Positions 1-38,523 of a stretch of 64,000 bases of DNA are shown here, piece by piece. The stretch is taken from the sequence record LR597660; one strand, given 5' to 3'. The notes below the pieces were generated by a model. That model was given only the letters and a program-made list of their open reading frames with translations. It was not told where the DNA came from and searched no databases. The position numbers were made by a program, and so were the translations under genes. Positions within the stretch are counted from its first letter, which is position 1. Each line of letters opens with the position of its first letter. Origin of the DNA: Escherichia phage T4_ev151.

Positions 1-425
1 ATAAGAGTAAAGAAATATTTCTTGCCCTGAAATTTTACCGTAGTATCAATATAAAATAAATTTGATTTTTGTAAATTACGTTTAAACCATGCATCACTTA
101 AACTATAAACGCCAAGATAATCATAATCGTCGTTTAAATAACAGACCGTCCATTCAGGAGAAACAAAATCAGTAAATTCAACATCAAAATCGCATGTTAA
201 TAAATGAATTGATTCAATACTGTTAATAAGTATTCCAGGACGTATTAAAGACTTTTTACCTCTAGAAAATCTTCCAGAAAGACTTTCATCAGTTTCATAT
301 GAAGAACCCCAATAATAATTACGTCCTTCTGCCATACGTTTAAGAGCATTTAATAATTGGTCTGGAACATCAACTTGTCTTTGGAATTCTTCAAACATTG
401 AATTGAAATCACTTTGCATTTTCAT
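1..425 (-). CDS. hypothetical protein, partial (C-terminus lies beyond window start); begins MKMQSDFNSMFEEF
   Basis: Open minus-strand frame running off the window edge; ATG at 425-423; not in the supplied ORF track because it is truncated. Confidence 0.4.
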   Translation of the reverse strand, partial: MKMQSDFNSMFEEFQRQVDVPDQLLNALKRMAEGRNYYWGSSYETDESLSGRFSRGKKSLIRPGILINSIESIHLLTCDFDVEFTDFVSPEWTVCYLNDDYDYLGVYSLSDAWFKRNLQKSNLFYIDTTVKFQGKKYFFTL

Positions 426-446
426 TCCTATTTACTCCAAGTAATA

Positions 447-460
447 GGGGCCGAAGCCCC
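447..460 (-). terminator. GC stem-loop GGGGC-UUCG-GCCCC on the minus-strand transcript, after the 467..1060 gene
   Basis: Perfect 5-bp GC stem with UUCG tetraloop read on the minus strand; no clear U-run, so may act as an RNA stability hairpin rather than a terminator. Confidence 0.45.
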
Positions 461-466
461 TTATCA

Positions 467-1060
467 TTATTTCAGAGAATTAATGTATTCCTGAACATCG
501 GCAGAGGTAGTTTCAACCCCAGAAATATTACCGTTAAAGGTTTCAACTCGAGCAAGGGTATCTTCAATATCAACCTTAGTCAGTGCTGCAATTTCAACTA
601 CATCATCGGCAGTACTAATTCCAAGGGCATTTGCTGCACGAGTTTCACGGATATATTCCAATTTAACCGCAAGTTCTTGACGAGCATCATCTAACTCAAC
701 TACTTTCTTGGCGATTTCAATTCGCATTTCAGCATAACCGTCAGCCTTAGTAGTCAACTGCTCAGCTGTTCGACGATATAGTAAACCGAGTTTAGCATGC
801 ATTGTTACATCTTGGCCTTCGGAAAGAAGTTTACGAATTTCACGCTCTTTTGATTCGGCCTGTCGATTCTTTTCGATAACAAGTTCACGAATACGTTTTT
901 CTTCGTTAATAGATTTAACAGAAGCAGTTTTTAGATCTTTAATTTTATCAAGTAGTTTTGCTGCTGCAGCAGTATACTGTTCTTCGACAGATAGATTTTT
1001 AGCCATAGCAGAACCAAGTTTAGTGCGAATAAACTCAACAATTTTCTTCAGTGTGTTCAT
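467..1060 (-). CDS. coiled-coil protein, possibly PspA/IM30-like
   Basis: 197-aa ORF with SD AAGGAA upstream of ATG; highly charged heptad-rich sequence loosely resembling PspA; no search possible. Confidence 0.6.
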
Positions 1061-1131
1061 AGTATTTCCTTAGGTTAATTGAGATTTAAAATCCGTAGGA
1101 GTATAATACTCTATCGTCAAATTATAGGCTC

Positions 1132-1161
1132 ATAATATCTCAATCATGAGCCTGCGTAAAC
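1132..1161 (-). promoter_or_regulatory. T4 early-type promoter (-35 GTTTACG, 17-bp spacer, -10 TATTAT)
   Basis: Minus-strand read AAGTTTACG-N17-TATTAT upstream of the 467..1060 gene. Confidence 0.5.
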
Positions 1162-1422
1162 TTATTTCATATTATTGAAATATTCTTCTGCGATTTCGTC
1201 GTTATCATGGTAAACTTTAGAAGACAGTTTAACATAACCTTCTGCTGTGAACATATTAATCACAACTTTTACAGTATACCACTGACCGTCTTCATTACCC
1301 ATTACTGCGTAAGTTTCAAACATCGGATGATCAGGACCGATAACTTTAATATCATTCACTGTACGACCGAAATCTTCTGAAACGCATTTCATAAAGAAGT
1401 TGAACAGTTCGCCGTAATTATC
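1162..1422 (-). CDS. hypothetical small protein (start trimmed to ATG at 1422, MDNYGELFNFF...)
   Basis: ORF-track N-terminus overlaps an early promoter; internal ATG preceded by GGAGAATGAA SD. Confidence 0.5.
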   Translation of the reverse strand, partial: DNYGELFNFFMKCVSEDFGRTVNDIKVIGPDHPMFETYAVMGNEDGQWYTVKVVINMFTAEGYVKLSSKVYHDNDEIAEEYFNNMK

Positions 1423-1468
1423 CATTTCATTCTCCAAGTTGTTTTCTGTATCAGTAGTTGATAGTTGT

Positions 1469-1498
1469 ATAGTACCATGGAAGAACAGAGATGTAAAC
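1469..1498 (-). promoter_or_regulatory. T4 early-type promoter (-35 GTTTACA, 17-bp spacer, -10 TACTAT)
   Basis: Minus-strand read CTGTTTACA-N17-TACTAT about 45 nt upstream of ATG at 1422. Confidence 0.5.
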
Positions 1499-1621
1499 AG
1501 TTTTGTGAAAAAATTTTTAGGGAATTCTAGGGCAGGGATGGGCAATTAAAGGATAGGATAATATATTATAAAGGGTATAAACTAAATGATGCCTAGAGAG
1601 GTCCAGAAAGGCCTAGATACC

Positions 1622-1647
1622 AAAAAGCCCTATCATTTAGATAGGGA
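1622..1647 (-). terminator. intrinsic terminator hairpin (CCCTATC/GATAGGG stem followed by U-run)
   Basis: 7-bp inverted repeat then UUUUU on the minus-strand transcript, directly after the stop of the 1655..2218 gene. Confidence 0.55.
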
Positions 1648-1654
1648 TTTAAAA

Positions 1655-2218
1655 TTATTTACCTAGTTTAGTTATTATAGCTTCTGCAGCAGCTTTTAGC
1701 TTAGATGCAGTGTTAATACGATTTTTAATTTCAGTATACGCATCGCCAAGAACATCAAGGCTATCAGAATAAACACTTACACTATTGCGTTCGCTATTTG
1801 AAATAGAACCTTTAGTTTTACGATCAAAATCGGTGTACACGTCTTGAAGATCGCGGGCTGCCTTCTTTGCATCATCCAATGCATCAAGAGCTTTATTCAA
1901 AGCATTAACGTATTTTTTGGTGTCGAACATATTCTTAGAAATTTTAACAGGTGCACGTTCAGGAGTAGCTAATACAGATTTAGGAACCTGAGCGCCAGAT
2001 GCCAATTTCTTAGAAATTTTGAAAAATGCTTTATTGAATTTATTTTCTTGACTCATTGTAAAAGAACTATTATCGATGTTGTACATTTCAATAGCTTTAG
2101 CTTTCCACTTAAGAAAATCGCCGCGGTCTTTTGGGTCCAAGTGGAAGAATACTTTAGTAAGATCTGCTTCAGATGGTAATTTTGCTGCTTCGGTTAAAAA
2201 TTCTGCATAGGTTTTCAT
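1655..2218 (-). CDS. internal (capsid-packaged) protein with N-terminal capsid-targeting sequence MKTYAEFLTE (IPIII-like)
   Basis: N-terminus matches the T4 internal-protein CTS consensus MK(T/S)Y(Q/A)EF(I/L)(A/T)E, which ends in the gp21 prohead-protease cleavage motif; SD AAGGAT upstream. Confidence 0.65.
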   Translation of the reverse strand: MKTYAEFLTEAAKLPSEADLTKVFFHLDPKDRGDFLKWKAKAIEMYNIDNSSFTMSQENKFNKAFFKISKKLASGAQVPKSVLATPERAPVKISKNMFDTKKYVNALNKALDALDDAKKAARDLQDVYTDFDRKTKGSISNSERNSVSVYSDSLDVLGDAYTEIKNRINTASKLKAAAEAIITKLGK

Positions 2219-2308
2219 TTAAAATCCTTGAAATAATCTATCGGTTGGTTATTAATTATTTATTACTTTGTTATTATCCGTAACAGCGTTATCCGAGTGA
2301 TTCAAACT

Positions 2309-2335
2309 AAAAAGCCCCAACCTTTCGGTCGGGGC
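2309..2335 (-). terminator. intrinsic terminator ending the tRNA/stable-RNA transcription unit
   Basis: 9-bp stem (one G-U) with GAAA loop followed by UUUUU on the minus-strand read GCCCCGACC-GAAA-GGTTGGGGC-UUUUU. Confidence 0.6.
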
Positions 2336-2336
2336 T

Positions 2337-2652
2337 AAGCCTTGCGGCAACCTTGTCGGGGTTCCACCTGCTAAGGCAAGTGTTTGTACGAAACGCCGGG
2401 ATTCGAACCCGGTTATCAAGCAGTTGACGCTACTCAATATTTTTAAAAGGCCATATCTCGACCATATCCGAACGTTCCGTCAAAAACGCTACTCGGCTTA
2501 CGGCAAAGATATTTCCTCGAATCGATAATTCGGTGCGCCGTTTCTGCTGTGATATAAGGGGGCATTAACAAAACATAAAGATTTATTAATGCCAGTCCTT
2601 AAACAGGGAACATCAGTCCGACGACTTGCCGGTAGCGACCCGGCTTCTTGTC
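2337..2652 (-). ncRNA. stable RNA region downstream of tRNA-Arg (T4 species 1/species 2 rnaC/rnaD-like), containing a tRNA-like T-arm
   Basis: No credible CDS; lies between tRNA-Arg and a strong terminator, as in T4 tRNA subcluster II; GGGTTCGAATCCCGG T-arm motif near 2396-2410 and several stem-loops; exact RNA ends not determined. Confidence 0.4.
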
Positions 2653-2729
2653 TGGTCGAGGCAGAAGGATTCTAACCTTCAACCTACGGATTAGAAATCC
2701 GTTGCTCTATACAATTGAGCTATGCCCCG
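2653..2729 (-). tRNA. tRNA-Arg (anticodon TCT), CCA encoded
   Basis: Manual cloverleaf: acceptor CGGGGCA/TGCCTCG, D-stem GCTC/GAGC, anticodon stem ACGGA/TCCGT with loop TTTCTAA, T-arm GAAGG-TTAGAAT-CCTTC. Confidence 0.85.
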
Positions 2730-2732
2730 TAA

Positions 2733-3398
2733 TTAAAATTTCATTTTTCGACCTTTAAACCATCCTTCTGGAATTGGGTCAGTTTTCTTAATACGTTTAG
2801 AAACTTTTTCATCTAATGAATGAATCCACATCATACCAAATTGGGAATTCTTTTCGCCCTGTTGATGTTTATTTCTGGCGTGAGATTCTTTCATTTTATT
2901 AATAGTTTCAGGAGTATGGGTCTTACCCAAGAAAGATTTAGTATTTAAAAATTTCTCTCTATACTTAGGATTATCCCAAAGCCGTTTAAACCTTTCTGAA
3001 CCCATTTTACGATATTTTTCTTTAAGGTCTGGGTCGTTCTCAAATCTGGTTTTAAAAGCGGCAGCTCCTTTTAAGGAAGCTTCTTTCTTTTTATCCAAAT
3101 ATTCTTTAGTGTTTAAATGGTCCCAACCACCTTCACCACCTAATTTCAAATTATAAACATCAGGGCGCTTTAAAAACTCTTCAGTCACAATATTCTTTTC
3201 TGACTCAAACATAGAGGTTTTATCGTCAAAGAACTCTAATATTTCTTTAGAAAAATTTTCTATACCATACTTATCTTGGGCTCTTTTTAATAATTTACCA
3301 GAACCCATATATCCATCATCTAAATTTTCGGTAGAATGAGCGCCTATATAGATTTTATTATTAATTTTATTTGTTATTTTATAAATGTAATGGAACAT
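2733..3398 (-). CDS. segB: GIY-YIG homing endonuclease SegB-like, within the tRNA cluster
   Basis: 221-aa ORF; N-terminal IYKITN...KIYIGAHST...[14 protein letters not shown] module; position between tRNA subclusters as T4 segB; SD AGGAGA upstream. Confidence 0.85.
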   Translation of the reverse strand: MFHYIYKITNKINNKIYIGAHSTENLDDGYMGSGKLLKRAQDKYGIENFSKEILEFFDDKTSMFESEKNIVTEEFLKRPDVYNLKLGGEGGWDHLNTKEYLDKKKEASLKGAAAFKTRFENDPDLKEKYRKMGSERFKRLWDNPKYREKFLNTKSFLGKTHTPETINKMKESHARNKHQQGEKNSQFGMMWIHSLDEKVSKRIKKTDPIPEGWFKGRKMKF

Positions 3399-3439
3399 AA
3401 ATATCTCCTATTTCTAAGAGTATTTATGTTCTCAAAATA

Positions 3440-3511
3440 TGGCCCTGGGTGGAATTGAACCACCATCTGGCGATTATGAGTCGCTTGCTTGAACCTTCCA
3501 GCTACAGGGCC
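3440..3511 (-). tRNA. tRNA with anticodon CAT (T4 tRNA-Ile-like, lysidine-type, or Met)
   Basis: Manual fold: acceptor GGCCCTG/CAGGGCC, anticodon loop CTCATAA, T-arm GGTGG-TTCAATT-CCACC; CCA not encoded. Confidence 0.75.
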
Positions 3512-3517
3512 TTGATA

Positions 3518-3590
3518 TGCTGATTGACGGAATCGAACCGCCGACATCCTCATTACAAGTGAGGTGCTCTACCTACTGAGCTAAATCAGC
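3518..3590 (-). tRNA. tRNA-Thr (anticodon TGT)
   Basis: Manual fold: acceptor GCTGATT/AATCAGC, D-stem GCTC/GAGC, anticodon stem CCTCA/TGAGG with loop CTTGTAA. Confidence 0.85.
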
Positions 3591-3597
3591 GAAATTA

Positions 3598-3684
3598 CGG
3601 AGGCGATAGGATTTGAACCTATGAGTCGCCGGAGCGACTGCCGGTTTTCAAGACCGGTGCATTAAACCACTCTGCCACGCCTCC
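3598..3684 (-). tRNA. tRNA-Ser (anticodon TGA), long variable arm
   Basis: Manual fold: acceptor GGAGGCG/CGCCTCC, anticodon stem CCGGT/ACCGG with loop CTTGAAA, long variable arm, T-arm ATAGG-TTCAAAT-CCTAT. Confidence 0.85.
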
Positions 3685-3686
3685 AG

Positions 3687-3760
3687 TCTCCGTGGCAGGA
3701 TTTGAACCTACGACATTCTGCTCCCAAAGCAGACGCTCTACCAAACTGAGCTACACGGAG
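3687..3760 (-). tRNA. tRNA-Pro (anticodon TGG)
   Basis: Manual fold: acceptor CTCCGTG/CACGGAG, D-stem GCTC/GAGC, anticodon stem TCTGC/GCAGA with loop TTTGGGA; CCA not encoded. Confidence 0.85.
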
Positions 3761-3772
3761 TAAATTAAATTT

Positions 3773-3844
<72 letters not shown>

Positions 3845-3850
3845 AAACTT

Positions 3851-3937
3851 TGGTACGAGAAGTGGGACTCGAACCCACAAGGAAATCATTCCGCAGCATT
3901 TTAAGTGCTGTGCCTTTACCAATTTGACCATTCTCGC
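3851..3937 (-). tRNA. tRNA-Leu (anticodon TAA), long variable arm, CCA encoded
   Basis: Manual fold: acceptor GCGAGAA/TTCTCGT, anticodon stem CAGCA/TGCTG with loop CTTAAAA, T-arm GTGGG-TTCGAGT-CCCAC. Confidence 0.85.
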
Positions 3938-3943
3938 GCTATA

Positions 3944-4576
3944 TTATTTATTACGTGAAAAAGACTGTTCTATCAATTCTGGACACTTTCGTTCTATCCA
4001 TTTTCTAGCTTTTTGTGGGCTTATACCTATTATTTTAGCAGCTTTACTAACCCATCCAAATTTAGAATAATCGATTTTAACTAATTCTTCGTAAATTTCA
4101 TCAGTTAAAATCTTTTCATTAATATTTACCAGTAAATGATATAATTTATTATCATTAGCAATTTTAATGAATCTTTTATAGTTTCCGCCTTTACTTAAAC
4201 CTAATGAAGTAATTGCAGATGATATAGTAGCCGAATTTAATAGTGCGTTTAAAATTTCTTCATCACTAACATTATAACGCTTTCTATTATTTTTAATATT
4301 TTTACCAGCAAAAGTATCAGTTTGCGAATGGCAATTTGGGCATAATAATCTTAAATTTGATTTAAGATGATTTTTGTTATTTCCATCAATATGGTCTAAT
4401 TGTAGAACAATATGCTTATTTTGCCATTTTGAAATTTTACAAATTGCACACTCATATGGAAAAATATTTTCTTTTATTATTTTGTCTTTCAGCTTTCCTG
4501 TACTAAAATTTGGATGTTTTCCTTCAAAAATTTCAGCTAATTTAGTATCCATAATATGATTCCCAATTATTAACAA
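3944..4576 (-). CDS. HNH homing endonuclease, abutting the 5-prime end of the tRNA cluster
   Basis: 210-aa ORF with HNH core LDHIDGNNKNH...NLRLLCPNCH and an upstream CxxC pair; stop codon 6 nt from tRNA-Leu. Confidence 0.8.
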   Translation of the reverse strand: MLIIGNHIMDTKLAEIFEGKHPNFSTGKLKDKIIKENIFPYECAICKISKWQNKHIVLQLDHIDGNNKNHLKSNLRLLCPNCHSQTDTFAGKNIKNNRKRYNVSDEEILNALLNSATISSAITSLGLSKGGNYKRFIKIANDNKLYHLLVNINEKILTDEIYEELVKIDYSKFGWVSKAAKIIGISPQKARKWIERKCPELIEQSFSRNK

Positions 4577-4662
4577 AGGCTCTCAAACAAGAACCCTTGA
4601 TGATAGAGGGTATTAATCAGTGCGGTATGAGTTAATAATAACAAATAATTCTTAAAGCATAT

Positions 4663-4950
4663 TTACCATTTATGATGATACATACTTACGATGCATTCAA
4701 GACCCAAAGAATTCTTGAAAATATCATATTCAAGAGGACCTTTTTCTGTTTCAATAAAGAAATCAAAATTTACTGTGTTAAATTTACGGTCTTCCTTCAC
4801 CAATTTAACTTGAGAAGATGAACGGTCAATATAAACCTTTTCAACTTCAAAATATGTTAAAATGCCATAATCATCAATCAAGGCTTTAGCTGCTTCTTGA
4901 TCATATTTATATCCATTTTCAATGGACGATACTTTAGCATAAAGAATCAT
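4663..4950 (-). CDS. hypothetical protein (ip-locus accessory ORF)
   Basis: 95-aa ORF in the gene-dense minus-strand early block, 2 nt after the stop of the upstream ORF. Confidence 0.5.
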   Translation of the reverse strand: MILYAKVSSIENGYKYDQEAAKALIDDYGILTYFEVEKVYIDRSSSQVKLVKEDRKFNTVNFDFFIETEKGPLEYDIFKNSLGLECIVSMYHHKW

Positions 4951-4952
4951 TA

Positions 4953-5336
4953 TCAGCCTTCATCAACAATAGTATGAGTGTGGGCATTTACAATTTGCCA
5001 CCAATCAAAGCGATTAGAACCATACATCGGTTTGTTTTCATTTTCTTTGATAATATCACGGAGTTCATCTTCAGTAGCGGCTTTCGCGATTAAATCAGCA
5101 TATCCACCACAAGGATAATAATTATCACCTGCAAAAAGTAAAAAATTTGGTGTAATATTATTGAACTCTTCAAGAGTAATAACTGTTCCTGATGGTAGTT
5201 GAACAATCTCTACATAGTTATATCCTAATTTTTGAGCAGCATCTACTGCTTCAAGCAGGGTATCATGAGCCCGTCCTATTTGGCAATTTGGCTTTTTAGA
5301 TGGATTAGCCTGATAATCCGCGTACACTTTATACAT
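4953..5336 (-). CDS. hypothetical protein (ip-locus accessory ORF; start trimmed to MYKVYADY)
   Basis: ATG at 5336 preceded by AGGTGA SD, 1 nt after the upstream stop; the longer track ORF starts with a non-ATG codon overlapping the upstream gene. Confidence 0.5.
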   Translation of the reverse strand: MYKVYADYQANPSKKPNCQIGRAHDTLLEAVDAAQKLGYNYVEIVQLPSGTVITLEEFNNITPNFLLFAGDNYYPCGGYADLIAKAATEDELRDIIKENENKPMYGSNRFDWWQIVNAHTHTIVDEG

Positions 5337-5337
5337 T

Positions 5338-5523
5338 CTATTCACCTTTAGAAATTTTATCCATAACAATAGCGATTAAACCAATTAAAAATGCTACTAC
5401 AAGTGAAAACACATTTTCTGCTGTAGTCAATAATCCACATATAAATCCAACAAACATTGAAAAACTAAAAGCGGAAGCAGAAATTGCAATAGCAACATTT
5501 CGAATTAATTCACAACGTTTCAT
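5338..5523 (-). CDS. small hydrophobic (probable membrane) protein
   Basis: 61-aa ORF, predominantly hydrophobic, with its own early promoter and GAGGAGAAT SD. Confidence 0.5.
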   Translation of the reverse strand: MKRCELIRNVAIAISASAFSFSMFVGFICGLLTTAENVFSLVVAFLIGLIAIVMDKISKGE

Positions 5524-5551
5524 TTTATTCTCCTCAGTAGTTGATAGGGTA

Positions 5552-5581
5552 ATAATATCACCACCCTATCTAAAAGTAAAC
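5552..5581 (-). promoter_or_regulatory. T4 early-type promoter (-35 GTTTACT, 17-bp spacer, -10 TATTAT), embedded in a GATAGGG/CCCTATC inverted repeat
   Basis: Minus-strand read AAGTTTACT-N17-TATTAT upstream of the 5338..5523 ORF. Confidence 0.5.
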
Positions 5582-5815
5582 TTATTTTTTACGAAAAATT
5601 GATTTATATTTATCAGCCCATTTCTCGATGACTTTTTCTGGTCCATAGATAACAAAATAATCACCAAACTCTTCACCACCGAGCTGACCGAAATTATCTA
5701 ATGCATCACGAAGAACTCCATGAGGCATTTCGCCCATTTTATCTTTCTTACCAATGTAAATAAACTCAACTTTTACATCAGCAGCTTCAGCAATAAATTC
5801 TTGATACGTTTTCAT
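5582..5815 (-). CDS. ipI: internal protein I-like (capsid-targeting sequence MKTYQEFIAE followed by a small mature domain)
   Basis: ATG at 5815 with GGAGAATAAA SD; N-terminal 10 residues match the T4 IP capsid-targeting sequence; position immediately downstream of 57B as in T4; track ORF is longer through a GTG start. Confidence 0.7.
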   Translation of the reverse strand: MKTYQEFIAEAADVKVEFIYIGKKDKMGEMPHGVLRDALDNFGQLGGEEFGDYFVIYGPEKVIEKWADKYKSIFRKK

Positions 5816-5851
5816 TTTATTCTCCAATTTCACATTTGTTTTGATAGGGTA

Positions 5852-5881
5852 ATAGTATCACTACTAAAACCCCGTGTAAAC
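5852..5881 (-). promoter_or_regulatory. T4 early-type promoter (-35 GTTTACA, 17-bp spacer, -10 TACTAT) upstream of ipI
   Basis: Minus-strand read AAAGTTGTTTACA-N17-TACTAT; shares the extended AAAGTTGTTTACA motif with the promoter at 63888..63917. Confidence 0.55.
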
Positions 5882-5893
5882 AACTTTGTGAAA

Positions 5894-6578
<685 letters not shown>

Positions 6579-6579
<1 letters not shown>

Positions 6580-7304
6580 TATAGTACCTTTAGTGTATTT
6601 TTAATTTTAGAAAAAAGTTCTTCAAGAGAACCATCGTTTGTAATTACTAAATCGCCATCACGAATTGGCAATCCAGCTTCTGTAATATGTGTATCATTGG
6701 ATTTTTGACCAGGACGAACTACATGAATTACTGTAGCACCCATCGCCCTAGCCGCATCCATTTCATGATCTTGACGAGTATCAGGAACGATATAATAATC
6801 ATAACCTGAGTTAAATTTATCAAGATAATCTAAAGCAAATAATTTTACCCAATACATGCGGTCGAAGTTATTAACAATCAAATCCGTACCTAGGGCTTGC
6901 ATCAGACGACGGACTGACCATTGATCTTCAATATTATTTATAACGTCAATAATCTTGTTAAATGCTACGGAATTAACTGATTCTTGTCCTTCGTCATCAA
7001 AAACAAACACATCCTTAATTGGGCTTTTACCATTAAGATAGCAAAATGCTTGTTCCATAATCGTGATTACTTCTGATTTAGTCAGATTTAAATTAGTCTC
7101 ACGATCATAGTCAATTCCTTCAAACTCTTTACGAGTTAAGCAAGGATAGTCAGTGTTTGCTGCAAATACTCCCCATGCATAAGCCAATGCATCCTTAATA
7201 GGACCAGCAAGTTGGTATTTAACTGCAGAATAATTGCTCATGATAAAATCAGCAGTAGTATCTTTTCCACTACGCTTTACACCGCTTAAAAAGATTAGTT
7301 TCAT
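6579..7304 (-). CDS. 1: gp1 deoxynucleoside monophosphate kinase
   Basis: P-loop LSGVKRSGKDT near the N-terminus; start trimmed to ATG at 7304 (SD GAGGAG), giving 241 aa as in T4 gp1. Confidence 0.9.
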
Positions 7305-7353
7305 GTGTTTCTCCTCAAATTTAATTAAGATTATAACACACAAAACTGAAGCA

Positions 7354-7884
7354 TTAAACTTCTGCTATAATTTTTCCATCTTTTTCTACTTGAAAATAGG
7401 TGTAAGGAATCGTTGCTGTACATACTAAAGCCGGATCTGAATCTTCTGTGTAGCTAAATTCTACTTCAGATAGGTCAGAAACCCAAGGCTTATAAAAATT
7501 TATTGACATCACGATTTCAGTTTTGCTATTATCTAAAATGTAAAGCGTAATGTACTCAGGACCTGTTTTTTGGGCAGTATTTTCACCTGTAAGATAGTTA
7601 CTAGTTCCTAGCATCCATTCATACATTCCTATCCATGATTTAAGTTCTTCATCAACTATAAATCTCACAATGAGTGGATCATACTCGAATGTAACACCTG
7701 GACGTTGTGCTCGGCCCAGTCCAAACGGCCCAGTCACGGTATCAGTAACAGGTATTCTAATTCCTGGAATAGGAACTGACTGAGCATTTAAAGTAAAAGC
7801 AGATGTAGTATTACTATGTGGTATTGATACTACAAAGTTAGTTGTATTTGCTTGGTTAAAAATTTGTTGCAGAGCTTGCGACAT
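7354..7884 (-). CDS. 3: gp3 tail tube terminator / sheath stabiliser
   Basis: Position between genes 1 and 2; start trimmed to ATG at 7884 (SD GAGGAA), giving 176 aa as in T4 gp3; the track ORF begins at a TTG. Confidence 0.8.
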   Translation of the reverse strand: MSQALQQIFNQANTTNFVVSIPHSNTTSAFTLNAQSVPIPGIRIPVTDTVTGPFGLGRAQRPGVTFEYDPLIVRFIVDEELKSWIGMYEWMLGTSNYLTGENTAQKTGPEYITLYILDNSKTEIVMSINFYKPWVSDLSEVEFSYTEDSDPALVCTATIPYTYFQVEKDGKIIAEV

Positions 7885-7990
7885 ATATTCCTCATAATGC
7901 TTTATAACTGTTAGTGGTATAATGGGTCTAAGTCCCTTCCATTCAATTCCATTTAGAACAAACAACAGAAAAGAATGGAAGATAATAGAA

Positions 7991-8815
7991 TTAGATATTT
8001 GACCAGACTTTGTTTGCAGAGAAACGTTTTCCTTTTGAGTAGAAGCTTTGGAGTGGCATCAACACAACGTTCGCCCAGTCTTTCGGGGCGATTTCAACAA
8101 GGCTACCCATAATATTACCAGGTATATATGCCTTAATCATTTGGTCTGCACCCCTAAATCCTTTCACTTGACTCCAATCAATTTTTAATTTCGTTTTATT
8201 AGTAATAGTAGGTGTATTTGCATATTGCTTTAAAAGCTCTTCTAGAAACTGTTGACGAGCTTTAGGTGGAATATAGTGCAAGTTTAATCCGTACATTAAA
8301 TTATGCTTACCTAAACCAAGGTAAATTATCAAAGGAAATTTATCCCAGTAAGGAAGAGTTTCCTTGTGTTTAGCATCATAAGCAAAAGCATATATTCGTC
8401 CCGGCTGCGGGCGAACAACTTTATGTCCTTTTACTTGCTTAATAGTTTCAGCAAACCACTTTCTGGTTTTATTATTAATTGCTGCACCTTCATTACGAAT
8501 TTTATCACGCAATGTTTGTCTGAATGAATTTATCATAAGCAGTTGTCTTTCTTGCTTATTGAGTTTATTCATTGGTTTTGATTCAAGCTTTTGAATCTTT
8601 TCAGCTGTTTTAATTCCTGAAGCATATTTTGACATTGCTGAAGTAAACGTAGAGTATTTGATTCCTCTTTCTTCAGCAAATTGCTTTCCTGTCATTCCTT
8701 TTGCTTTGGCCTTTTTATATTCAAGACCTATCTGAATCCATTTCTTTTCGTTTAATGATTGCTTAACCTTTGGAACTTGGGGAGTGCTTTCATTAATTAT
8801 TTGAAAAATAGCCAT
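7991..8815 (-). CDS. 2: gp2 DNA end-protector protein
   Basis: 274-aa ORF, length and synteny identical to T4 gp2. Confidence 0.8.
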
Positions 8816-36620: not shown

Positions 36621-37045
36621 TGCTTCTGATCCCTGAAACTCATGAATTAGTTCTCGAGAATGTCGAAGCACTTATTCCTGAAGCACAGGGTCGCTTTGAC
36701 GAATTGTCTTCTGCTTTAAATAAAGACGATATAAATACAATTGTCGAGAATATGCTTGATGATGAAACTGATTTAGCGGTTGCATTAGCTTCTATTAATG
36801 AAAATATGCCGTTAAATGAATTCATCGTTAAACATGTTTCCGCCCGTGGTGAAATTACTCGCACTAAAGACCGCAAAACGCGTGAACGTAATGCATTTCA
36901 AACCACTGGGCTGTCTAAAGCAAAACGTAGACAAATTGCTCGTAAAGCTACCAAAACGAAGATTGCCAATCCAGCAGGTCAATCTCGTGCTCAGCGTAAG
37001 CGTAAAAAAGCTCTTAAACGCCGTAAAGCATTAGGATTAAGCTAA
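36620..37045 (+). CDS. 68: gp68 prohead core protein
   Basis: 141 aa; synteny; basic C-terminus. Confidence 0.8.
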
Positions 37046-37683
37046 TGAATGAACCCCAATTACTAATTGAAACTTGGGGTCAACCTGGCGAAATTATTGA
37101 TGGCGTGCCAATGCTTGAATCTCACGATGGAAAAGACTTAGGTTTAAAACCGGGTTTATACATCGAAGGAATATTCATGCAAGCGGAAGTCGTCAATAGA
37201 AATAAACGTCTTTATCCAAAACGTATATTAGAAAAAGCGGTAAAAGACTATATTAATGAGCAAGTTTTAACTAAACAAGCTCTCGGAGAATTAAATCATC
37301 CTCCACGCGCTAATGTTGACCCGATGCAAGCCGCTATCATTATAGAAGATATGTGGTGGAAAGGAAATGACGTATACGGACGAGCTCGTGTTATTGAAGG
37401 TGACCATGGTCCTGGAGATAAATTAGCAGCTAATATTCGTGCCGGATGGATTCCAGGAGTTTCTTCTCGTGGATTAGGTTCATTGACTGACACAAATAAA
37501 GGTTATCGTATCGTAAACGAAGGATTCAAATTAACTGTAGGTGTTGATGCAGTATGGGGTCCAAGTGCTCCAGATGCATGGGTAACTCCTAAGGAAATTA
37601 CCGAATCACAGACGGCGGAAGCCGATACAAGTGCCGATGACGCCTATATGGCTCTCGCAGAGGCCATGAAAAAAGCGTTATAA
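37045..37683 (+). CDS. 21: gp21 prohead core scaffold / maturation protease
   Basis: 212 aa as T4 gp21; synteny. Confidence 0.9.
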   Translation: MNEPQLLIETWGQPGEIIDGVPMLESHDGKDLGLKPGLYIEGIFMQAEVVNRNKRLYPKRILEKAVKDYINEQVLTKQALGELNHPPRANVDPMQAAIIIEDMWWKGNDVYGRARVIEGDHGPGDKLAANIRAGWIPGVSSRGLGSLTDTNKGYRIVNEGFKLTVGVDAVWGPSAPDAWVTPKEITESQTAEADTSADDAYMALAEAMKKAL

Positions 37684-37713: not shown

Positions 37714-38523
37714 ATGCTTAAAGAACAACTGATTGCCGAAGCGCAGAAAATTGATGCTTCCGTTGCTCTTGATAGTATTTTCGAATCAGTTAATATTTCT
37801 CCGGAAGCAAAAGAAACTTTCGGCACTGTATTCGAAGCTACCGTCAAGCAGCACGCCGTTAAATTAGCTGAATCTCATATCGCTAAAATTGCTGAAAAAG
37901 CAGAAGAAGAAGTAGAAAAAAATAAAGAAGAAGCAGAAGAAAAAGCTGAGAAGAAAATCGCTGAGCAAGCTTCTAAATTCCTTGACCATCTTGCAAAAGA
38001 ATGGCTCACTGAAAATAAATTAGCAGTAGATAAAGGTATCAAAGCCGAACTGTTTGAATCCATGCTTGGTGGATTGAAAGAGCTCTTCGTTGAACACAAC
38101 GTTGTTGTTCCAGAAGAATCAGTTGATGTTGTAGCTGAAATGGAAGAAGAACTGCAAGAACATAAAGAAGAATCAGCTCGTCTGTTCGAAGAACTCAATA
38201 AGCGTGACGCATATATCAATTATGTGCAGCGTGAAGTGGCATTGAGCGAAAGTACTAAAGATCTGACTGAGTCTCAAAAAGAAAAAGTCTCTGCTCTGGT
38301 CGAAGGTATGGATTATTCAGATGCATTCTCAAGTAAATTGAGTGCAATCGTAGAAATGGTGAAGAAATCTAATAAAGATGAAAGCACTATTACTGAGAGT
38401 ATAAATACTCCTGATACTGAAGCAGCCGGACTGAATTTCGTCACTGAAGCTGTAGAAGATAAATCTGCACAAGGTGCAGAAGATATTGTAAGTGTATATG
38501 CGAAAGTCGCATCTCGTTTCTAA
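37714..38523 (+). CDS. 22: gp22 prohead core scaffold protein
   Basis: 269 aa, acidic coiled coil; synteny. Confidence 0.85.
   Translation: MLKEQLIAEAQKIDASVALDSIFESVNISPEAKETFGTVFEATVKQHAVKLAESHIAKIAEKAEEEVEKNKEEAEEKAEKKIAEQASKFLDHLAKEWLTENKLAVDKGIKAELFESMLGGLKELFVEHNVVVPEESVDVVAEMEEELQEHKEESARLFEELNKRDAYINYVQREVALSESTKDLTESQKEKVSALVEGMDYSDAFSSKLSAIVEMVKKSNKDESTITESINTPDTEAAGLNFVTEAVEDKSAQGAEDIVSVYAKVASRF

Follow-up and report, generated by a model that had tools for sequence, protein, structure and literature searches.

We analysed a 64,000-nucleotide (nt) stretch of the genome of Escherichia phage T4_ev151 (sequence record LR597660; hereafter the window), a Tequatrovirus (T4-like phage), with a focus on four minus-strand open reading frames (ORFs) at positions 4663-5815 that sit between an HNH homing-endonuclease gene and 57B, the gene for the anti-CBASS protein Acb1. 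The reading that we consider probable, if some way short of firm, is that this locus combines ip6, the gene for an internal protein that would be injected and act against type IV restriction (McrBC), with an inherited early operon, trna.4-trna.3-trna.2. According to this model the region would be an accessory segment bounded by acb1 (57B) and the tRNA cluster, made up of two promoter-led units. In the first unit the N-terminal sequence MKTYQEFIAE would take Ip6 into the scaffolding core of the prohead, the protease gp21 would cut the precursor after I-A-E, and the resulting 67-residue, near-neutral alpha/beta protein would be packed and injected together with the DNA and would block the type IV enzyme McrBC at DNA entry, ahead of phage gene expression. 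Two direct copies of a promoter and ribosome-binding site (RBS) around ip6 would be the likely substrate for swaps of IPI, Ip5, and Ip6 cassettes among relatives. The second unit, the early operon, would be inherited essentially as in T4 and consist of dispensable accessory genes whose early products most likely interact with the host or its defences, with Trna.2 probably binding a DNA-bearing complex. The locus is already known overall, with open functional questions, and the novelty is modest; as far as we can tell, a variable patch that separates two Ip6 alleles and a tandem-domain, polymorphic architecture of trna.3 have apparently not been described before. The coordinates of all features are compiled in Table 1.

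The product of ip6 is annotated as Ip6 or ipVI in the phages e11/2, GiZh, and VR20, and the Ip numbering used here rests on GenBank annotations. The Ip6 family is said to be named after the original description of Ip6 by Repoila and colleagues in 1994. The first 11 residues of the precursor (MKTYQEFIAEA) are those of T4 IPII and IPIII. An earlier inspection of the letters and ORFs of the window (the sequence-only reading) had taken MKTYQEFIAE as a targeting sequence, and the identity to residues 1-10 of both T4 proteins bears this out. In IPIII the first 10 residues suffice for encapsidation, positions 4 and 7 governing targeting and positions 8 and 10 processing, and gp21 cuts after L/I-x-E (PMC9026906). 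The cleavage motif is present in Ip6, where I8-A9-E10 is followed by Ala11 as in IPII and IPIII, and the window itself encodes both the gp21 protease (Peptidase_S77, 37045-37683, E-value 1.5e-111) and the gp22 scaffold (T4_CASP, 37714-38523). Since the targeting residues are all identical and the genes for gp21 and gp22 are at hand, we infer on good grounds that Ip6 is packaged and that gp21 cleaves it at IAE/A to a mature form of 67 amino acids (aa). The mature protein has an isoelectric point (pI) of 6.8, and the AlphaFold2 (AF2) model of Ip6, with a predicted local distance difference test score (pLDDT) of 82, adopts a beta-alpha-beta-beta-alpha-beta fold.

The sequence-only reading had described the injected protein as ipI-like. 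In the comparison with the mature domain of T4 IPI*, Ip6 gave no Pfam hit, no PDB sequence hit, and 18% global identity to T4 IPI; its propeptide differs and its mature domain is unrelated, so that a diverged IPI was rejected on both comparisons and the protein is Ip6 instead. T4 IPI/IPI* (IPI_T4, PF11634), an injected GmrSD inhibitor, resembles Ip6 in that its gene occupies the same slot between trna.4 and 57B, flanked by early promoters, and in being an N-terminally processed, capsid-targeted small protein. It differs in its propeptide of 19 residues (MKTFKEFTST...ITE/A) and its pI (9.0 vs. 6.8 for Ip6), and no shared fold was detected. T4 IPII and IPIII, which are inhibitors of GmrSD subtypes (Silas et al., 2025), likewise differ from Ip6 in that their mature domains are unrelated to it and their genes lie at another locus, beside e.

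The functional assignment draws on phage Bas37 (phage KarlGJung, MZ501089.1) as reported in the HIDEN-SEQ preprint (bioRxiv 10.1101/2025.11.20.689424). There the gene bas37_0260 is placed "at the same locus as" T4 ipI; its disruption strongly reduced fitness on E. coli K-12 BW25113 and did not do so on a host without McrA, McrBC, and Mrr, and its clean deletion made the phage sensitive specifically to McrBC. The gene (234 nt) immediately precedes the trna.4 orthologue, with an Ip5-like gene and 57B on its other side (10.1101/2025.11.20.689424). Ip6 of the window and Bas37_0260 are identical at 62 of 77 positions (81%) over the full length and without gaps. Both are 77 aa long with the same targeting sequence, and their genes, each immediately preceding trna.4, share the promoter cassette on their upstream side; the difference is that in Bas37 Ip5 stands between bas37_0260 and 57B, whereas the window is without Ip5. 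Because of this identity together with the same position, inhibition of McrBC at DNA entry is most likely the function of Ip6. All four ORFs had been put forward as the best candidates in the window for undescribed anti-defence functions, and for the ip gene the word undescribed does not hold, as an orthologue with 81% identity is already reported as an inhibitor of McrBC.

Internal proteins have long been seen as basic, DNA-associated contents of the head (PMC9026906), and Ip6 might accordingly be a purely structural, DNA-packing protein with no role against host defences. The mature protein is however near neutral rather than basic, and its orthologue has a phenotype that depends specifically on McrBC and can be dispensed with on a host free of restriction, which leaves a purely structural role very improbable.

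Several points weigh against the reading of Ip6 as an injected McrBC inhibitor next to an inherited early operon. For McrBC there is a single preprint, in which the phenotype is reported for Bas37 only, and it deals with the majority allele. Ip4-10 were without reproducible effect on 15 GmrSD groups (PMC12373910); this result has no bearing on McrBC, and it indicates how hard the targets of Ip proteins are to predict. Pfam and NCBIfam scans as well as PDB sequence and profile searches returned no informative match for the four proteins, and Ip6, trna.2, trna.3, and trna.4 are without sequence or structural similarity to any protein of known mechanism. No late-promoter motif (TATAAATA) is found directly upstream of ip6 on its strand, and a conditional phenotype for trna.2-4 is absent from the text and table excerpts of the HIDEN-SEQ preprint. 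Finally, 13 of the 15 amino-acid differences between Ip6 and Bas37_0260 fall into the 25 residues 46-70, which form one surface patch, the rest of the two proteins being nearly identical.

This last point bears directly on the target of the window allele. Nucleotide identity between the two genes drops to 62.7% in codons 46-70, compared to 94.8% in codons 1-45 (Fisher p = 2e-6), and since the differences cluster in this patch McrBC is not certain as the target of the window allele. Ip6 of the window could instead inhibit another type IV enzyme, of the GmrSD type or a variant of McrBC, rather than the McrBC of K-12, with the 25-residue patch setting the specificity. Such a shift would be in keeping with the clustered differences and the low nucleotide identity in the patch, and with the behaviour of T4 Ip1, Ip2, and Ip3, each of which blocks strictly one GmrSD subtype without cross-protection (PMC12373910). 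It would also suit the status of the window allele as the minority form: about 37 of 230 Ip6-bearing records carry it at ≥90% identity, and 178 Ip6-bearing records, T6 among them, fall at 60-80% identity. The overall identity of 81% and the identical synteny with Bas37_0260 argue the other way, as does the negative outcome for Ip4-10 on the GmrSD groups, although that assay may have used the other ip6 allele. Also on this side, synonymous changes are raised in the patch (6 of the 12 codons with an unchanged amino acid), for which reason the patch looks like an old alternative segment, and an old recombined segment fits the data as well as selection does. We consider a different target unlikely, while giving it real weight, and retain McrBC as the most likely target of Ip6.

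The slot occupied by ip6 is modular. An identical 77-aa Ip6 is encoded beside an 85-aa Ip5-like gene in three records (L007, L010, and L012), beside IPI in a fourth (L008, where the 95-aa neighbour carries PF11634), and alone, as in the window, in the metagenomic contig L011. KAW1E185 has IPI* plus Ip6 at 100% identity, and T4 carries IPI at this slot. The expectation that the locus varies and carries anti-restriction cargo is thus confirmed for the ip slot, which holds Ip6 alone, with Ip5, or with IPI, proteins that the literature ties to type IV restriction. As a side observation on the same genes in Bas37, the HIDEN-SEQ preprint gives for the comparison on a clinical isolate a value of +5.04 log2 for bas37_0260, and depletion both of the Ip5-like bas37_0261 (-2.09 log2, q listed as 0; 4364-4621 in the Bas37 record, L004) and of bas37_0262 (57B/Acb1; -1.56 log2, q 0.003; 4695-5153). 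These values hint that Ip5 and Acb1 are needed by Bas37 on that clinical isolate.

The sequence-only reading also held that two early promoters serve the four ORFs. Two sigma-70-like sites were located, one in each of the only two intergenic gaps, and both match the early-promoter consensus of T4 and PST, TTTACW-N17-TAYWAT (PMC4122927). The promoter scan by itself was not significant (14 sites vs. 8.7 ± 2.8 expected). The two sites are nevertheless credible because, in addition to matching the consensus, they are copies of a 24-nt direct repeat (D2; 5841-5864 and 5541-5564, 92% identical) and each is followed by a copy of a 16-nt repeat (D4; 100% identical) that contains the RBS and start. The copies of D2 and D4 are spaced 292-300 nt apart and flank ip6 on both sides. 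Repeated elements have been proposed as a recombination substrate for promoter-early stem-loop (PeSL) cassettes and noted for the IP locus (PMC4122927), and it is plausible that the promoter/RBS cassette on both sides of ip6 is such a substrate. As in PeSL cassettes (Arbiol, 2010; Comeau, 2014), a repeated early promoter with Shine-Dalgarno sequence and start codon flanks a swapped gene. The arrangement differs from PeSL in that the window has no space for the stem-loop, the -35 box beginning 2 nt past the ip6 stop in one case and about 14 nt past the 57B stop in the other, and no terminator-like hairpin was found immediately 5' of the promoters.

Calling the ORFs early is correct insofar as early-type promoters are present and incomplete for an internal protein, which needs late synthesis for packaging. 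The nearest T4 late-promoter motif is located upstream of 57A-57B-ip6, and the stretch scanned for terminators (6500-4400) contained no terminator-like site; given both, ip6 may be expressed late by read-through from 6942..6935.

The second unit is separated from the ip gene by 58 nt and is tightly packed, with 1 nt between the trna.4 stop and the trna.3 start and 2 nt between the trna.3 stop and the trna.2 start. Its genes are orthologues of T4 trna.2, trna.3, and trna.4 (UniProt Y07B, Y07C, and Y07D; 95, 57, and 100% identical, respectively) whose order and spacing are conserved, and 5334-5561 shares 96.5% nucleotide identity with T4. These conserved, catalogued T4 genes do not match their earlier portrayal as hyperplastic, variable cargo. 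That their function is undescribed was correctly stated: trna.2-4 are still uncharacterised, and hence the four ORFs are not all characterised T4 genes with known non-defence functions. In the hydropathy profile trna.4, noted before as a 61-aa hydrophobic protein, indeed shows two hydrophobic helices with charged ends and a grand average of hydropathy (GRAVY) of 1.22. The 45 homologues of trna.2 are all at least 70% identical to it and confined to close T4 relatives. In a pull-down, just two phage proteins, T4 Trna.2 and Inh, were enriched with wild-type DRT1 compared to a reverse-transcriptase knockout (PMC13275509). As the capture needed reverse-transcriptase activity, Trna.2 probably binds a DNA-bearing complex, and the result suggests that its capture by DRT1 reflects binding dependent on the DNA product; the authors left the hit unpursued and remarked on its narrow distribution (PMC13275509). 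In the HIDEN-SEQ preprint trna.2-4 of T4 and bas37_0257-0259 of Bas37 are classed as non-essential (10.1101/2025.11.20.689424).

Of the three genes only trna.3 departs strongly from T4, and the divergence is concentrated in one half of the protein. The 24 homologues of trna.3 all occur in T4-like phages. A 138-aa version initiated at TTG (to 5369) was considered and discarded, as it would overlap trna.4 and the homologues all start with MYKVY or an equivalent sequence. In the AF2 model (pLDDT 86) the two halves of the protein have a similar order of secondary-structure elements; the fold had no informative match in the PDB, and a Foldseek search against viral models retrieved only uncharacterised proteins. 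The C-terminal copy shares 89% identity with its T4 counterpart and is present in 776 phage records, and a profile search of 1.84 billion representatives yielded 557 members of its family at E ≤ 1e-3, nearly all of them stand-alone proteins of 60-75 aa that cover residues 63-127 only. The N-terminal half aligns in register to this stand-alone family (hhalign probability 67%, E-value 5e-5), and for this reason trna.3 is probably a tandem duplication of a widespread phage domain of about 65 aa. The N-terminal copy has about 30% protein identity to T4 and is a different allele from that of T4; its alleles form at least three classes, the window type (about 285 records), the T4 type (about 127), and the Bas37 type (about 186). 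Among the relatives of trna.3 no solved or annotated protein was found, and the stand-alone genes lie in arrays of small unknown phage ORFs that offered no functional lead. One member of the C-terminal domain family (P0101, L013 131-607) is fused to an N-terminal XRE-type helix-turn-helix (HTH) domain, the only fusion of this domain seen with a recognisable partner.

The proposal that trna.4, trna.3, and trna.2 are undescribed anti-defence genes has to be judged on these data. The genes are early and non-essential and adjoin acb1 and ip, Trna.2 co-purifies with the defence protein DRT1, and the combination in trna.3 of at least three discrete N-terminal alleles with a conserved C-terminal copy is as in arms-race proteins. 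On the other hand, the near or full identity of trna.2 and trna.4 to T4 means that neither is diversifying, the available text and tables of the T4 and Bas37 transposon screens contain no conditional essentiality for them, no similarity to known anti-defence proteins was found, and the DRT1 hit was left aside by its authors with the remark on its distribution. We therefore hold an anti-defence role of the three genes to be possible but on balance doubtful, and prefer an inherited operon of accessory genes whose products would interact with the host or its defences in some manner. More speculative and rather improbable is a specific version in which the operon is a counter-defence or host-targeting module, the N-terminal copy of trna.3 (of the duplicated YYPxGG...WWQIVD domain) is exchanged among at least three allele classes to set specificity, and the ligand of trna.2 is the DNA adduct of DRT1-type defence reverse transcriptases.

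A further candidate for an injected protein lies outside the locus. The minus-strand ORF at 1655-2218 encodes 187 aa with a capsid-targeting-like N-terminus (MKTYAEFLTE/AA), a pI of 9.4, and membership in phrog_2280 (unknown function). It has no T4 counterpart and is 99% identical to bas37_0243, a gene classed as "Essential" in the HIDEN-SEQ table (insertions at 1 of 48 TA sites) but not taken up in the text of the preprint. As the source of a so far undescribed injected function, this ORF may be more promising than the three small ORFs.

With respect to genomic setting, the order of genes is as in T4, i.e., tRNA cluster, trna.2, trna.3, trna.4, ip gene, 57B, 57A, and gene 1, and the four closely spaced ORFs have the coordinates, strand, and flanks attributed to them before. 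At least 80% of the stretch 4577-5900 was found in 276 phage records, with phage e11/2 as the top match (98.7%). The genes were judged real, as PHROG and Pfam families are recorded for all of them and the stretch is widespread in phage records. The blastn map against T4 identified as absent from T4 the ip body (5562-5793), the 5' half of trna.3 (5149-5333), the HNH gene (3941-4558), and 1647-2305. At the level of sequence, 4663-6352 is a fine-scale mosaic of T4, with 57B and trna.4 100% identical and foreign sequence in the ip body as well as in the 5' half of trna.3, and the phage may be a recombinant derivative of T4.

The HNH gene (window 3941-4558 in the map) replaces the body of the T4 tRNA-Gln gene. 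A tRNA-Gln is present at this site in T4, e11/2, and GiZh, none was found in positions 1-8000 of the window, and the same replacement occurs in Bas37 and in contig L011. The phrog_14736 alignment begins at residue 9 of the HNH ORF, and the start is therefore probably at 4552. An 11-bp hairpin (4577-4600; AAGGGUUCUUG/UUUG/AGAGCCUUU) is present on the minus strand in the gap that separates the trna.2 stop from the HNH start; the fold of the whole intergenic stretch was no better than that of shuffled sequence (z = -0.9). The tRNA at 3440-3511 on the minus strand was called tRNA-Met (CAT) by ARAGORN, whereas the syntenic genes of T4 and Bas37 are annotated as tRNA-Ile (anticodon CAU, reading ATA); this is a difference of naming for the same gene.

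Table 1. Features of the ip6 and trna.2-4 locus and its surroundings (positions in the window).
Feature	Position	Strand	Remarks
ip6	5582..5815	-	77-aa precursor of a predicted injected internal protein (Ip6 family); phrog_8111 "internal virion protein", E 1.8e-49
Predicted capsid targeting sequence of Ip6, MKTYQEFIAE, residues 1-10	5786..5815	-	identical in T4 IPII/IPIII; ends in gp21 motif I-A-E
Variable patch of Ip6, codons 46-70	5606..5680	-	second beta-hairpin and helix 2; separates window allele from Bas37 allele
trna.4 (Pfam Phage_T4_Y07D, PF26870)	5338..5523	-	61-aa membrane protein; phrog_1692, E 6e-35; 100% identical to T4
trna.3 (Pfam Phage_T4_Y07C, PF26894)	4953..5336	-	127-aa acidic two-domain protein; phrog_1411, E 2.5e-55
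trna.3 N-terminal domain, residues 1-62	5151..5336	-	polymorphic copy; no T4 DNA match across 5149-5333
trna.3 C-terminal domain, residues 63-127	4956..5150	-	conserved copy; motif FLLFAGxxYYPxGG...DWWQIVDxxTxxIV
trna.2 (Pfam Phage_T4_Y07B, PF27001)	4663..4950	-	95-aa acidic protein; phrog_2023, E 6e-47; 94.7% identical to T4
Early-type promoter upstream of ip6	5852..5880	-	TTTACA-17-TACTAT, TG extended -10; within 24-nt direct repeat D2
Early-type promoter of trna.4-trna.3-trna.2 operon	5552..5580	-	TTTACT-17-TATTAT, TG extended -10
Nearest T4 late-promoter motif (TATAAATA)	6935..6942	-	inside gene 1, upstream of 57A-57B-ip6
57B (Acb1)	5894..6352	-	anti-CBASS phosphodiesterase; Pfam Acb1, E 2.7e-60; 100% identical to T4 57B
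HNH homing-endonuclease gene	3944..4576	-	in place of tRNA-Gln; phrog_14736, E 6e-124

Injected proteins act ahead of phage gene expression and thereby set which restriction-proficient hosts a T-even phage enters, a role that is relevant to the choice and engineering of therapeutic phages. In the window the minority Ip6 allele occupies the slot by itself, next to Acb1, and the two Ip6 alleles would offer a direct handle on target specificity in this inhibitor family. T4, the best-studied phage, still counts trna.2-4 among its uncharacterised early genes. Since the trna.3 domain is frequent in the early regions of phages, a function established for it would apply broadly.

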